From: Polyangiales bacterium
Lineage (GTDB): Bacteria > Myxococcota_A > Polyangia > Polyangiales > CBDCBC01
Direction: 5' to 3'
Assembly: GCA_965214225.1 (NCBI GenBank)
Contig: OZ243942.1
Span: 2,583,779 to 2,647,778 of the forward strand
Length of the DNA: 64,000 bases
This document shows, in pieces, positions 18,671 through 63,676 of the stretch. The first letter of the stretch is position 1; every line of letters starts with the position of its first letter. The notes under the pieces are model-generated. The model ran no database searches. It saw nothing but the letters and a program-made list of their open reading frames with translations, and was not told where the DNA came from. The position numbers and the translations under genes are program-made.

Positions 18671-18724
18671 GAGGAGCAGCGGGTGTAAACCATGAACGTG
18701 CCTCATCGCGTCCGGACCCGTTCC

Positions 18725-18898
18725 CAATGCTGTTCAGTTAGGCCACCGTTCGGCTTACGTCCGCGGGAAAAATCCTCACGTACCACGACGTACGCTGCGG
18801 TTTTTCTCTGTGGGCGCTGGGATCGCAGGAGCATTGCGACAAGAACTCCACGAAAACTGACTCAACTGAACAGCATTGTCATTAACTGATCAGCATTG
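18725..18898. mobile_element. MITE-like non-autonomous element, family A, copy 1 (174 bp)
   Basis: Left end CAATGCTGTTCAGTTA; the right end reverse-complements to CAATGCTGATCAGTTAA. Flanked by the direct duplication GACCCGTTC(C) at 18715-18724 and 18899-18908. A second 174-bp copy lies at 32722-32895 (15 mismatches by manual alignment). Confidence 0.7.
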
Positions 18899-19143
18899 GA
18901 CCCGTTCCCTAAACGCGGGCAAGCCGTAGGGCGCAGGTAGAATAGGGGAATGCCCATCGCGATCTGCGGTGGAGCTGTTCGGCTCTGGAACCGTAGTGGC
19001 TTGCAGCCCGTAGGCGTGCGGCTGTAGCAGACGCAAGTCCCCTTGCAGAGGCGCGGTTGTTGCAGACGCACCAATGGCCGGCGTGCTAATCTGCGCGCTC
19101 ACCGGCGTGGAGCCGAGGGAGCATCAGGGACAGGAGATACGTA

Positions 19144-22960: not shown

Positions 22961-23149
22961 GCGGTATAGCCGGTATAGCCGGTATAGCCGGTATAGCCGG
23001 TATAGCCGGTATAGCCGGTATAGCCGGTATAGCCGGTATAGCCGGTATAGCCGGTATAGCCGGTATAGCCGGTATAGCCGGTATAGCCGGTATAGCCGGT
23101 ATAGCCGGTATAGCCGGTATAGCCGGTATAGCCGGTATAGCCGGTATAG
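22961..23149. repeat. 9-bp tandem array x21 (CCGGTATAG) in a divergent intergenic region
   Basis: 189 bp of perfect CCGGTATAG units; only the first unit varies (GCGGTATAG). It lies between the gene starts at 22814 (-) and 23313 (+). Confidence 0.95.
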
Positions 23150-25564: not shown

Positions 25565-25733
25565 AATCCTAGGGTGTTAGCGCACTTTCGAGTGTGAGCC
25601 GAGCACGTACGCGTGCCGCGCGTGACGAAGCTGCGTGTCAAAATGTCCCGCATGCTGCTGTACGACACGGTCCCTCCACCAGCACGGCGCCGAGCCGGAA
25701 ACAACCTGCGGAGCCACTTCGAAGCGCTCCGCT

Positions 25734-25846
25734 CTCTGTGCCACTATGTTCTCTGTGCCACTATGTTCTCTGTGCCACTATGTTCTCTGTGCCACTATGT
25801 TCTCTGTGCCACTATGTTCTCTGTGCCACTATGTTCTCTGTGCCAC
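25734..25846. repeat. 17-bp tandem array x6.6 (CTCTGTGCCACTATGTT)
   Basis: Six perfect units plus an 11-nt partial unit. It lies between the surE stop (25888) and the sigma factor start (25564), both on the minus strand. Confidence 0.95.
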
Positions 25847-29428: not shown

Positions 29429-29710
29429 GTGCTTGAGCTTCCGGAGCAACGTGAGCCTTTTTCCTGACGTTCTGATGCGTGAGCTGCTCGGGATGCGAAC
29501 AGTCGTTCCACGTCCGGCCTCCCGCCTCCCAGACCTGAGGTAAACGTTCAGGTATTTTAGTATGCGCCTGGCAATCACAAACGCTTTGGATCTTGCTCTG
29601 GGATGAAGTTTCGAGCGTCTCGTCTTGGTGCTCTATGAACCCGCGTGATCAATAAGAGCAACGACCTCATATGGGAGCCGTCTATGTCAAGGTTGCTGTC
29701 TCAAGATTGC

Positions 29711-29731
29711 CTTGTAAAGTAACCTTTACAA
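29711..29731. repeat. 21-bp palindromic motif CTTGTAAAGTAACCTTTACAA (copy 1 of 2)
   Basis: 8-bp inverted repeat TTGTAAAG/CTTTACAA around a 4-nt centre. A 20/21 identical copy in the same orientation lies at 34087-34107. Confidence 0.8.
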
Positions 29732-32379: not shown

Positions 32380-32610
32380 TGTAACCGGTCAGTGGCTTTC
32401 AGATCAGGAAAGGACGCTTCCCGAGGAGGTAGTGCATTCGGCTCCTTTTATTATACAGCGTCCTCAAACCCCATCCTCACGCACCCAGGTTACCCAGGTG
32501 CGCTCCGGTGGGGTTTTGCGTGGAGTTCTCGTCGACTACGTCTCCTGCGATCCCAGCACTCGACTGCACAACCTCCTCGAAAACCGACTCGCCAGGGACT
32601 GACCAGTTAC
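32380..32610. mobile_element. MITE-like element, family C, long copy (about 230 bp) with nested inverted repeats
   Basis: Outer TIR is GTAACCGGTCAGT versus the reverse complement GTAACTGGTCAGT. Inner IR is CGAGGAGGTAGTGCATTCG (32422-32440) versus the reverse complement of 32561-32579 (17/19). Flanked by the 8-bp direct duplication GTCGTTCG (32372-32379 and 32611-32618). Confidence 0.6.
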
Positions 32611-32721
32611 GTCGTTCGCAACGCGTGAGGCATGCGGGCTGGGAGGGCACGCACACGTTTCGACCCACCTCGGATTACTAGCTACTGAAAACACACCTCT
32701 TTTGAGGGTGGTGCGTGTCCC

Positions 32722-32895
32722 CAATGCTGTTCAGTTAAGCCACTTTTCGGCTTACGTCCGCGGGAAAAATCCTCACGTACCATAACGTACGCTGCGGTTT
32801 TTCCCTGTGGGCGCTGGGATCGCAGGAGTGAAACGACGAGAACTCCACGAAACCTGACTCAACTGAACAGCATTGTTCTTAACTGATCAGCATTG
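32722..32895. mobile_element. MITE-like element, family A, copy 2 (174 bp)
   Basis: Same ends as copy 1. Flanked by the direct duplication TGCGTGTCC (32712-32720 and 32896-32904). It ends 14 nt from the stop of the HepT-like gene. Confidence 0.7.
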
Positions 32896-32909
32896 TGCGT
32901 GTCCGCGAA

Positions 32910-34083: not shown

Positions 34084-34111
34084 GTGCTTGTAAAGCAACC
34101 TTTACAAGCAC
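34084..34111. repeat. Perfect 12-bp-stem hairpin containing copy 2 of the 21-bp palindromic motif
   Basis: GTGCTTGTAAAG-CAAC-CTTTACAAGCAC. It lies in the divergent region between the MNT gene start (33768, -) and the lipoprotein gene start (34434, +). Confidence 0.8.
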
Positions 34112-37050: not shown

Positions 37051-37154
37051 CATTAGTTCAAATGAGCACATGAGTTCAGATGAGCGCATGAGTTCAGATG
37101 AGCGCATGAGTTCAGATGAGCGCATGAGTTCAGATGAGCGCATGAGTTCAAATG
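37051..37154. repeat. 18-bp tandem array x5.8 (CATGAGTTCAGATGAGCG)
   Basis: Four perfect units (37069-37140) flanked by a diverged unit and a partial unit. It begins 8 nt upstream of the longest start of the membrane protein gene. Confidence 0.95.
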
Positions 37155-37423
37155 TATACGTTCAGGTATCCTAGCATGCGGTTTTGGTGGCTTTCTACTG
37201 CCCGAAGGGTTACCTGAACGCTTGCGTTCAAGTGAGCACGTTGGTTCAAGTGAGCGTCTCCCGACTGCTCGCCGCCGCTGTGGCATGCTCGCGCCATCGC
37301 GGCAAGCTGCCACAGGGTGGCGAAACCATCACGCGCCTACGCCAGCCGCTGATCCTGTAGTAGCGTGCCAAAATCTGGTAGTAGCGCGGCAAAGGCTGGC
37401 ATGTTAGGTGTCTCTGGTTTGTC

Positions 37424-38591: not shown

Positions 38592-39325
38592 TGTGACGAC
38601 GAGCGGCTAGGTGCCGCGCGCCACAGCCTCGTCGTCGACCTCGGGACCGCTCGAGGCAGCACGCGAAACAACACTCGAAACAACACTCGAAGCAGCAGAG
38701 TGCGCCACGCGACCACTACACCTCCCGTGGCGTGCCGCGAATCGCCTGCCGGTTTGGAACCACGGGCGCAATAGACGCAGATGCGGTGGCAGGCAAGCCG
38801 CATGGCGCGTGCCGATGGTCACGTGCAGGCCTTGGCTCATTTGGCGACGAGCTTATTTGACGACGAGCTCAGTAGACGACAACCCGCTTTGTATGCTGAA
38901 CATTCCTCCGACCGCATGGCGAATGAACTCGCCGATACGAATCCTTCGGGCCTTGGGATGACCAATGACTCTCTACCGATGAAGGCGAGGAGGTCTTCAG
39001 ATGCTCGGGTTTGGTTTCCGCGCCCAGGTGTCCACCTGCGTCGGGAGGTGGTGCATCCTCGGTTGCTCCGGGAGCGGCAGGCTCCGCATGCCCCGTGTGC
39101 CCCCCGCCATATTCAGCCTCTGCGTTCTGTTTTGTAGAAGACATTGCAAGCACAGCCAGCGCCAATATGACTAAAGCGCCGACAGCCAGTGTAATCCATA
39201 AACCCATTGTTCGTCTCTCCCTGATTAACATGAAGCGGCGACCGCGCCTCTCTCAGGTCGCGGCCGCCGGTGTTGTTACACAACGCTACGATAATGTTCT
39301 CGTTCACTGCCTCCGCAGCATTGTG

Positions 39326-39479
39326 GTTGCGGCACTGTGGTTGCGGCACTGTGTTTGCGGCACCGTGTTTGCGGCACCGTGTTTGCGGCACTGTATTTCC
39401 GGCACTGTATTTCCGGCACTGTATTTCCGGCACAGTGTCTACAGCACAGTGTCTACAGCACAGTGTCTACAGCACAGTG
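39326..39479. repeat. 14-bp tandem array x11 with stepwise sequence gradient
   Basis: Units in order: GTTGCGGCACTGTG x2, TTTGCGGCACCGTG x2, TTTGCGGCACTGTA x1, TTTCCGGCACTGTA x2, TTTCCGGCACAGTG x1, TCTACAGCACAGTG x3. A diverged unit follows. Confidence 0.95.
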
Positions 39480-39524
39480 TCCGCAGTACCCTAGATGCAG
39501 CACTGTATCCGTAGCTCTTGCCGG

Positions 39525-40993: not shown

Positions 40994-41065
40994 GCTGTAG
41001 AAGCATGCGCGGCTGTAGAAGCATGCACGGCTGTAGAAGCATGCACGGCTGTAGAAGCAGGCACA
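40994..41065. repeat. 18-bp tandem array x4 (GCTGTAGAAGCATGCRCG)
   Basis: Three near-perfect units plus one diverged unit, in the divergent region between the starts at 40738 (-) and 41292 (+). Confidence 0.9.
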
Positions 41066-41767: not shown

Positions 41768-41900
41768 TGTAACTGTTCCTTGGTTCGCGGCCAGAAAGGC
41801 ACGCTTGCCACGGAGGTTGTGCATTCGGCTCCCTTCGTTGAATCCACAGTTTAATACACAGCTGAATGCACAACCTCCTCACCAGGAGCTGACCCGATAC
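41768..41900. mobile_element. MITE-like element, family C, short copy (about 133 bp)
   Basis: Both arms match the 32380-32610 element, including the inner IR GGAGGTTGTGCATTCG versus its reverse complement GGAGGTTGTGCATTCA. It lacks about 100 bp of the core. Flanking CACTCG is duplicated (41761-41766 and 41901-41906). Confidence 0.5.
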
Positions 41901-60716: not shown

Positions 60717-61712
60717 ATGAAACAAATTCTCATGAGGACCCAGATGTACACGAGCAGTCGGATTAACTCGGCCCGGAGTAGTAGGGCGTATCTTGCACGC
60801 GTTGTCGTCATTGCGGCCGCGTCTGCGGTTGCCGCCGGGTGCGGCGGTGACAGCTCATCTCCAGAGCCTGAAGGTGGTGGTTCGGGTACCGGCGGATTCG
60901 GCAGCCCAGCCGGAAGCTTCAACAGCGGTGCTGGGGGCTCAGGCGCCGCAGAGGAAGTCACATCGGTGTTCAACCAGCGGTTGATCAGTCAAGATGGCGA
61001 GACGTACTACGCGAGGAACTGCGACGTGTTGGCAGATGGGAGCCTTGAGTCGGGCTGCGGCTACAGCGGCGGCGCCCTCGTCTCCGGCCTGGAGCTTACC
61101 GCATCGGGTGGGGGAAATGTGGCATCAATTCGGGGCGGCTACGCATACACCGTCCGCACGGGAGACGGCACGCTCAAGTTTTTCCAACGCCTCATCGATG
61201 GCGACGGGACGGGCTACTTCTCGCGAGACTGCACTCTAAACAGTGACTTTTCGCTAGATGGCGATTGTCCTTTTAGCGGACGCAGGGACATCAGTGGCCT
61301 GGTGGAGAACGTCGTTCAAGACGGTTACGCCTACACGCACACCGACGCCGAGGGAACCACCTTCCTACATCAGCGTATGATTGCGGATGACGGAATGGGC
61401 ATCTATTCGCGCGACTGCAAGCTGACGGACGATGGAAGTATCGACGGTGCGTGTCCCTTCAGCGGCGCACGGCCCACCGGCATATCCGAGGCAGTGGGTG
61501 GTGGTTATGCCTTCACATATGTGGATGCCGAGGGAACAACACAACTCTTGCAGCGCTACTTCACCAAGGATGGGACGGGCTACTTTGCCCGAGACTGCGC
61601 CCTGCAGGACGATGGCTCCCTGGAAACTCCGTGTGAGTTTGGCGACGCGAATGCCACATCGGGCCTTCAGATCTCTGGCGTAACGGCCATCCGGAGTGGT
61701 TACGCTTACTAG
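60717..61712 (+). CDS. Lipoprotein with four ~55-aa Cys-pair repeats
   Basis: Lipobox is SAVAAGCGG. The unit is repeated four times: F.QR.I..DG.GY(Y/F)(A/S)R(N/D)C.L..D.S....C.(F/Y)(S/G) ... GYA(Y/F)T. Confidence 0.7.
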   Translation: MKQILMRTQMYTSSRINSARSSRAYLARVVVIAAASAVAAGCGGDSSSPEPEGGGSGTGGFGSPAGSFNSGAGGSGAAEEVTSVFNQRLISQDGETYYARNCDVLADGSLESGCGYSGGALVSGLELTASGGGNVASIRGGYAYTVRTGDGTLKFFQRLIDGDGTGYFSRDCTLNSDFSLDGDCPFSGRRDISGLVENVVQDGYAYTHTDAEGTTFLHQRMIADDGMGIYSRDCKLTDDGSIDGACPFSGARPTGISEAVGGGYAFTYVDAEGTTQLLQRYFTKDGTGYFARDCALQDDGSLETPCEFGDANATSGLQISGVTAIRSGYAY

Positions 61713-61940
61713 GGGTGACGTCCCTCAAGAAAGGTAAGCGGTATGCCCGGGTACCAGCGTTACGCAGGGCGGGTACCAGCATTACGCAGGGCGGTATCGC
61801 GCGATGTGCGGATAAGTCCAGGTAGCAGGGGAGGCGACTTGTCGCTGACTCTGCTTCCGACGTAAGCATTCAGGTACCCTTCGGGCAGTAGAAAACCCCC
61901 GGGATCGCAGGAATGAAATGATGAGAACTCCGTCTCAAAG

Positions 61941-62066
61941 CTCTCCCTGCTCCGCTCTCCCTGCTCCGCTCTCCCTGCTCCGCTCTCCCTGCTCCGCTCT
62001 CCCTGCTCCGCTCTCCCTGCTCCGCTCTCCCTGCTCCGCTCTCCCTGCTCCGCTCTCCCTGCTCCG
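61941..62066. repeat. 14-bp tandem array x9 (CTCTCCCTGCTCCG)
   Basis: Nine perfect units (126 bp) in the convergent intergenic region. Confidence 0.95.
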
Positions 62067-62481
62067 GCTTTCGTCCTCAAGACCTGTCCTAACGCACCTA
62101 GTTGCGCGCCGGTGGGTCAGTGCGCGCCGGTGGGTCAGTGCGCGCCAGGAGGTCTTCGCGTGGAGTCCTCCATGGTCGCAGGAGTGAAACGACGAGCCAC
62201 ACGTGCTTCCGGGAGGGCGACCAAGCTCGCACGACGGTCTCAAGGACCTCGAACTCTGACGGTCTACCCTCCCGGGGCACACCTTGACAACCACTTTACC
62301 GGCCGCTTGCTAACATACAAGAACTCTGGCCGTGCTTCTGCAATCCCAGCGCTCGGATCAGCTAGGACACCTGCACGTTTACCTTCCAACGTACCGAAAC
62401 ACCACCGTTAGCTGCTCCCGCGTTCAGTGCACGAGCCGCGCTCTGGTGCAGAAGCCCTGCCGCAGAAGCCCTGACGCAGAG

Positions 62482-63605: not shown

Positions 63606-63676
63606 AACCTAGCCGCTCTAAACCTAGCCGCTCTAAACCTAGCCGCTCTAAACCTAGCCGCTCTAAACCTAGCCGG
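63606..63676. repeat. 15-bp tandem array x4.7 (AACCTAGCCGCTCTA)
   Basis: Four perfect units plus an 11-nt partial unit, starting 21 nt after the stop at 63585. Confidence 0.95.

Follow-up and report, generated by a model that had tools for sequence, protein, structure and literature searches.

A conserved two-arm module beside a hairpin in mosaic intergenic repeats of a Myxococcota-like chromosome

A short string of nucleotides recurs among the intergenic repeats of the 64-kb chromosomal stretch analysed here (64,000 nucleotides, called the window below), and the question raised by the locus is what this string is. The initial annotation had proposed a functional unit carried by different mobile backbones: a protein-binding site, a small-RNA hairpin, or a recombination or transposition signal. 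The reading we prefer, and hold to be somewhat more probable than all others taken together, is that the module is a building block of lineage-specific, mosaic, hairpin-containing intergenic repeats of a REP/BIME-like kind, in which the arms most probably mark the end of a mobile unit that a protein recognises.

The module and its copies

The module is about 45 nt long and consists of two 16-nt arms flanking a variable centre of 5-7 nt. Four full copies plus three fragments at 62.2-62.35 kb were found in this 64-kb window of one genome, well above chance. The 5' arm, GCTGGGATCGCAGGAG, occurs exactly three times in the window (at 18816 and 32813 on the + strand and at 32542-32557 on the - strand), with degenerate matches at 61898 (+) and 62335-62350 (-). 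When up to three mismatches were allowed, five occurrences were observed against 1.16 expected, and none of 100 shuffled sequences reached five. The 3' arm, CGACGAGAACTCCACG, has perfect matches at 32834 (+) and 32519 (-) and one with a single mismatch at 18837 (+). The recurrence reported by the initial annotation is therefore real. All of the strings that it quoted (in both copies of a miniature transposon called family A, in a family C element in reverse orientation and, in degenerate form, around a 14-nt array at 62 kb) are present where it had placed them.

A sequence-only profile (R1) was built from the four aligned full copies and run across the whole window with filters off. The scores of these four copies, 39.5-50.8 bits, represent recovery by construction as the profile was built from them. 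Copies A1 (18812-18858, + strand, centre CATTG, 46.9 bits) and A2 (32809-32855, + strand, centre TGAAA, 50.8 bits) lie within copies 1 and 2, respectively, of the family A miniature inverted-repeat element (MITE). Copy C1 (32515-32561, - strand, centre ACGTAGT, 42.1 bits) forms the right edge of a unit that fills the loop of a family C hairpin. The degenerate copy T1 (61896-61938, + strand, centre TGAAA, 39.5 bits) has GGAA for GGAG and TGATGAG for CGACGAG and lies at the left edge of a 459-bp insertion. R1 gave two additional matches in the window, the remainder being noise. The first is the partial module T2 (62176-62196, + strand), a core TCGCAGGAGTGAAACGACGAG that again has the centre TGAAA and is identical to A2 at 21/21 positions (E=0.0011). 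The second, T3 (62334-62354, - strand), is a 5' arm GAGCGCTGGGATTGCAGAAGC matching at 18/21 positions, which lies 5 nt from the right edge of the same composite insertion; it is marginal by itself (E=0.042), and the inverted pair formed by T1 and T3 was not reported by the repeat search. The third fragment, from the 3' arm (62157-62170, - strand, GAGGACTCCACGCG, of which GAGGACTCCACG spans 62159-62170), is attached to the foot of a hairpin in a C1-like manner. A near-perfect 16-nt palindrome, ATCCCAGCGCTCGGAT, lies at 62343-62358, at the junction of the T3 arm with its flank.

The initial annotation had also noted that GGAG(T) and (A)CTCC could pair around the variable centre. A 4-5 bp stem plus TCG/CGA pairs can indeed be drawn, and the variable segment then sits in the would-be loop, as would suit a small RNA or a DNA hairpin acting at the RNA level. 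However, folding did not bear this out. Whichever strand was folded, the module hairpin did not surpass shuffled sequence (z of -0.2 to -1.3, and +1.9 for the degenerate T1), and the RNAalifold consensus was only -3.3 kcal/mol. Covariation offered no informative pairs: the pairing arms are invariant in the three intact copies, and T1 breaks the GGAG/CTCC pair (GGAA against CTCC) with no compensating change. The search of Rfam that had been proposed gave no match to the module, either at the gathering threshold or at E<=10, where only noise was seen. A simple scan of two regions gave no sigma-70-type promoter close to the copies there, a terminator scan found no terminator-like site at any intact module, and the orientation of the module relative to neighbouring genes is inconsistent. 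The module is neither a free-standing hairpin nor a small-RNA gene; the RNA-level reading is largely refuted by these data, and we regard it as extremely unlikely.

Several other readings were considered and set aside. A coding role fails because the frame of C1 is shifted by 2 nt relative to A1 and A2 and no conserved peptide was seen by eye. Inspection by eye likewise gave no arrays or spacers that would go with a CRISPR repeat (suggested by the ACGAGAAC-like end), and a sigma-54 promoter, an IHF consensus and an Alu/7SL-like GCTGGGAT had the wrong spacing or few matching bases. A lox/dif-type core site was rejected on symmetry: CGTGGAGTTCTCGTCG, which is the 3' arm read as its reverse complement, agrees with the 5' arm GCTGGGATCGCAGGAG at 6/16 positions, and there is no dyad symmetry beside the centre.

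Hairpin H is constrained by structure and the module arms by sequence

The carriers of the module had been described as otherwise unrelated, and this does not hold. In four places (A1, A2, C1 and the 62.1-kb region) the module adjoins a homologous hairpin of 65-100 nt, called H here, such that an H+module unit of about 108 nt is common to family A, the insert in family C and the region at 62.1 kb. The possibility, which the initial annotation had itself raised, that the module is part of one longer element is thus borne out in part. The layout of H is GGCTTW-CGTCC-K-C, an 8-nt arm, TCCTMA, CGYAC, a loop, GTRCG, C..CGG, the complementary 8-nt arm and TGYG. A covariance model of H (R2) gave only four matches in the window, all on the + strand: 18752-18816 in MITE copy 1 (outer stem GGGAAAAA/TTTTTCTC, 80.8 bits), 32749-32813 in MITE copy 2 (GGGAAAAA/TTTTTCCC, 81.2 bits), 32454-32525 beside C1 (AAACCCCA/TGGGGTTT, 80.2 bits) and 62066-62165 beside T2 (AAGACCT/AGGTCTT, 70.3 bits). 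The CGTCC tag is unpaired, lies 5' of the stem and is invariant in all four. The outer stem is 8-9 bp long, begins with two A-T pairs in C1 and T2 and with two G-C pairs in A1 and A2, and encloses 44-80 nt, within which lie conserved internal loops and a further stem; the tail reads TG(Y)G(T)GG. The loop of the T2 copy is expanded by 2.4 copies of an 18-nt tandem repeat, TGCGCGCCGGTGGGTCAG, at 62103-62146, and thus tandem arrays in this genome can arise inside repeat elements.

The stems of H are supported by the changes within them. In the alignment 93.1% of the cells are paired, versus 34-53% when the partners are slid by 1-3 columns. Both sides have changed in 8 of the 18 pairs, and none of 500 shuffles attained the covariation score, although the copies represent only three independent lineages. 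In the inner stem a T-A pair is replaced by C-G between copies, and the same outer and inner stems were obtained when each copy was folded individually.

The module behaves quite differently. When A2 and C1 are compared, the module arms are identical at 32/32 positions, whereas the adjoining hairpin H is identical at 35/64, its stems at 13/29 and the module centre at 1/5. Within one unit, conservation is therefore 100% for the arms, 55% for H and 0-20% for the centre. The module is, as first proposed, a discrete and unusually conserved unit, and the observed clustering of variation at its centre also stands: of the 15 differences that separate the two copies of family A over 176 positions, six fall within a single 12-nt stretch at the module centre (permutation p=0.007). 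Note that five of these six are adjacent, so that a single mutational event is possible. These comparisons show that H is constrained by structure and the module arms by sequence. Passive descent fails to explain arms at 100% beside a hairpin at 55%, and selection or recent conversion has to be added. This inequality within a 108-nt unit, the hairpin part of which carries compensatory changes, is the sole feature that points to a specific protein-DNA recognition. The remainder is ordinary repeat DNA, mainly of use for annotation and masking.

The invariant arms beside a diverged hairpin could also be those of a binding site selected by the host, for example for a nucleoid-associated protein, and held under purifying selection wherever it lands, independent of mobility. 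The bipartite layout with a variable spacer agrees with such a site, as does the fact that every module copy in the window is intergenic, and the IHF-binding L motif of E. coli BIME-1 is a precedent for a host-protein site borne by a repeat. However, the position and orientation of the module relative to the flanking genes are inconsistent, three of the seven occurrences are truncated or rearranged, and the public collections searched gave no copies outside this genome. Moreover, the arms are not mutual inverted repeats (6/16 by eye) and hence do not form a typical dimer site. We consider a host-selected site unlikely and retain the reading of the arms as the recognised end of a mobile unit.

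Carriers of the module and their insertion boundaries

Family A is a non-coding 174-bp element with only short spurious open reading frames, present in two copies in the window (18725-18898 and 32722-32895) that are 91% identical. Its terminal inverted repeats have 28-nt arms that are 79-86% complementary within each copy, and both copies are flanked by target duplications of 9-10 bp: the direct repeat GACCCGTTCC at 18715-18724 and 18899-18908 for copy 1, and TGCGTGTCC at 32712-32720 and 32896-32904 for copy 2. Judged by its ends, family A is an IS4-type MITE, because the outer 18 nt, CAATGCTG(T/A)TCAGTTA(A/G)G, are identical at 15-16 of 18 positions to both ends of E. coli K-12 IS4. AATGC..TCAGTTA is invariant between the family A and IS4 ends (the end form may also be written CAATGCTG(T/A)TCAGTTAAG). 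The single strand folds strongly into a long hairpin (z=-6.3). In its small size, lack of coding capacity, IS4-like inverted ends, target duplications and long hairpin, family A resembles IS4-family MITEs. It differs in that the module is an interior passenger that lies outside the terminal repeats, and that the module is also found in three contexts with no IS4-type ends nearby. The H+module unit (about 108 nt) makes up the entire interior of the MITE and, given the IS4-type inverted ends and target duplications, the module has been spread passively by transposition of the MITE. Neither transposase genes (Y1/RAYT or IS4-family) nor recombinase genes were found in the 64-kb window.

The other carriers are hairpins that have been filled or split. 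Family C has two members. In the hairpin at 32408-32578 the arms (32408-32448 and 32562-32578) surround a 113-nt H+module unit, which substitutes for the 28-nt loop seen in the second hairpin (41794-41880). The latter has a perfect 19-bp stem (z=-6.2) and neither H nor the module, and can be viewed as an empty site. This second hairpin lies between convergent genes and, as no T-tract was seen by eye, is not a canonical intrinsic terminator. At 62 kb a composite insertion of 459 bp (61901-62359) splits a family F hairpin; its order is T1, nine copies of the 14-nt repeat, H, the T2 fragments, some 115 nt of further sequence that looks hairpin-like by eye, and T3. The reference for the split copy (61859-61900 plus 62360-62385) is the intact family F hairpin at 37154-37222; the two halves are 459 bp apart, and both alignments beat 500 of 500 shuffles. 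The family F stem is CGTTCAGGTA/TACCTGAACG, and a partial copy is present at 29540-29566 in addition to the intact and split copies.

In all three cases with a definable boundary, the 5' end of the module is within 5 nt of that boundary. The C1 module has its first position at 32561, directly adjacent to 32562, where the sequence becomes homologous to the family C right arm. T1 begins at 61896, and the left half of the family F hairpin extends to 61900. The first position of T3 is 62354, and the right half of family F begins at 62360. The filled sites in families C and F lack a few loop nucleotides and show neither target duplications nor terminal inverted repeats. Insertion into hairpins is a more parsimonious explanation than deletion because the empty copies have complete and complementary stems. 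The coincidence of the module 5' end with three insertion boundaries also means that, among the roles first suggested for the module, a transposition or recombination signal fits best.

These boundaries bear on the possibility that the module is a passive relic. On that account every copy would be a degenerating piece of a single older element; the arms would owe their identity to recent gene conversion or to chance and would have no recognition function. A longer shared unit does exist, several copies are truncated and no relatives were found elsewhere, all of which would agree with a relic. However, it would leave unexplained both the strikingly unequal conservation within one unit and the module ends found at the three insertion boundaries, and we think a relic quite unlikely.

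Orientation must also be accounted for. H is on the + strand in all four places, whereas the module beside it is + in A1 and A2 and - in C1. In the T2 region the - strand 3'-arm fragment abuts H as in C1 and is followed by the + strand core. The module ends are quasi-inverted by eye (GCGCTGGGAT and GCGTGGAGTT), so that the junction between H and the module is similar in either orientation. The opposite orientations could be due to inversion, or the units could derive from an ancestral H-module-H inverted dimer, one orientation from each half. No intact dimer of this type was found in the 64-kb window, and no - strand H lies beside any module. A single inversion between two modules was also considered as the origin of the T2 and T3 fragments, but the arm order that it predicts is unlike that observed.

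A site-specific recombination or insertion site, having arms bound by a recombinase or transposase and a 5-7 nt centre as the region of crossover or cleavage, would explain both why the module is flipped between family A and C1 with respect to H and the rearranged fragments near 62.2 kb. The quasi-inverted ends, the clustering of variation in the centre and the breakpoints of fragments T2 and T3, which lie at the centre or close to it, are also in its favour. On the other side, the arms adjoining the centre lack the dyad symmetry of lox, dif and hix-type sites, the window has no recombinase gene, and the two orientations are found at different loci rather than at one. Moreover, an ancestral inverted dimer would yield both orientations in the absence of inversion. 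Such a site seems to us highly improbable. A related proposal is that the module serves as both the recognition end and the crossover site of an undescribed small mobile or recombining unit, which would enter hairpin loops without target duplication and in either orientation beside H, its arms being bound by an enzyme and its centre being cut and joined. We give this proposal little credence.

Comparison with known repeats and genomic setting

Under the preferred reading, that of a REP/BIME-like building block, H+module units outside the family A MITE would have been inserted into the loops of other hairpins without inverted repeats or target duplications. They may have spread as REP, BIME and REPIN elements do, by the single-strand chemistry of a HUH/Y1, RAYT-like transposase encoded elsewhere and acting in trans. 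An alternative route needing no transposase would be copy-choice template switching between hairpins, which would give loop replacement without duplications. Most simply, the conserved arms would be the sequence-specifically recognised end of the mobile unit, and the variable centre either an unconstrained spacer or a rearrangement-prone junction.

Modular architecture of this type has precedents. In the pneumococcal BOX elements (boxA-boxB-boxC) and the neisserial Correia elements, short conserved modules, some of which carry protein-binding sites, are put together in varying arrangements within small non-autonomous intergenic repeats. The repeats described here share with them an arrangement of modules in variable combinations. 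They differ in having no sequence similarity to either and in the variable orientation and partners of the module, in contrast to the defined module orders of BOX and Correia.

The closer likeness is to the REP/BIME/REPIN repeats of E. coli and Pseudomonas, among them the CGTC-tagged REPs of Di Nocera et al. (2013). In common with these, the present repeats have an intergenic hairpin with an unpaired conserved tag (here CGTCC), stems that vary yet stay complementary, a mosaic of hairpins and short conserved linkers that vary in order and orientation, and units lacking terminal inverted repeats or target duplications. The H+module units lie downstream of genes or between convergent genes. In REP-type elements a tagged hairpin with adjacent conserved nucleotides is recognised in trans by a single-strand HUH/Y1 transposase (PMC3733652), and IS elements can insert into or capture REP-type repeats (PMC1525189). 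Published REP dimers have spacers of 20-100 bp, some of which are conserved (PMC3733652). The CGTC-tagged REPs have an unpaired CGTC at one end of the palindrome, a stem of 8-9 bp with A-T at its first two positions, a loop of 4-5 nt, an overall length of 20-40 bp and a CCA tail (PMC3733652).

The differences are equally clear. Canonical REPs measure 20-40 nt and have a stem of 8-9 bp, a loop of 4-5 nt and the tail CCA, whereas H is 65-100 nt long and has two stems and conserved internal loops. In addition, the linker (the module) is here better conserved than the hairpin. Strict membership of the CGTC-REP class therefore fails on loop size, overall length and tail. Membership of the REPIN class was also rejected, since there are no inverted doublets and all four H copies in the 64-kb window are on the + strand. 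The present repeats form a new family of a familiar type of bacterial repeat DNA, one that works like a REP, BIME or REPIN rather than being one. They provide an example of how an intergenic repeat is assembled by nesting a hairpin constrained by structure, a linker constrained by sequence and ends borrowed from IS4. The genome concerned is deep-branching and Myxococcota-like, and no close relative of it has been sequenced.

The distribution of the module was examined with the pattern GGATCGCAGGA-N5-10-RAGAACTCC. This pattern was found at 12 loci in 596 Gb of species-representative genomes, as compared with about 13 expected by chance, and none of the loci was in a relative. A similar pattern gave two metagenome loci and no viral contigs. 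The public matches scored 13-24 bits with R1 and were treated as chance because their profile scores are alike, the metagenome contig L014 being no better than unrelated genomes. The L014 match (positions 103-136, 24 bits) has GATCGCAGGAGTGAACCGTGACGAGAACTCCA about 10 nt upstream of an open reading frame with a predicted signal peptide, which we take as a coincidence. If the source genome is in the collection scanned, it has no exact-pattern copies elsewhere. A blastn search of 32400-32900 against plasmids and phages gave no match, and 36 kb from the nearest available relatives (L016 and L017, with PcrA 56% and TreY 49% identical) had neither the module nor H. From these comparisons, the repeat looks lineage-specific.

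The window is ordinary chromosome of about 58% G+C that encodes a trehalose/glycogen cluster, an RND efflux system, PcrA, PBP1A, two tRNAs, a metacaspase and an MNT/HepT pair. The next-best homologues of its proteins are distant (49% for TreY and 57% for PcrA), and those that are named come from metagenome-assembled genomes of Myxococcota/Polyangiales. A neighbourhood of PcrA, a sigma factor, a SpoU methylase and PBP1A is common to the window and one relative. Proteins in the databases with 100% identity to open reading frames of the window all map to one contig of 3,531,598 bp. The source genome, a single contig of 3.53 Mb with 58% G+C, is small and relatively low in G+C for the phylum and has no close relative in the databases searched.

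Three minor features of the window were also recorded. Short-period perfect tandem arrays are unusually dense (37 TRF rows per 64 kb, with units of 9-30 nt) and are mostly intergenic; examples lie at 22962-23149, 25733-25846, 37051-37154, 39318-39481, 40994-41064, 61940-62066 and 63606-63675, and the units include CGGTATAGC in 21 copies and GCTCTCCCTGCTCC in nine. The open reading frame at 60717-61712 (331 aa) has no Pfam match, and within it a unit recurs three times at intervals of about 180 nt (61203, 61389 and 61569). Finally, a palindromic 21-mer, CTTGTAAAG(T/C)AACCTTTACAA, occurs twice in intergenic DNA (29711-29731 and 34087-34107, 20/21 identical) and has the appearance of an operator for a dimeric regulator.
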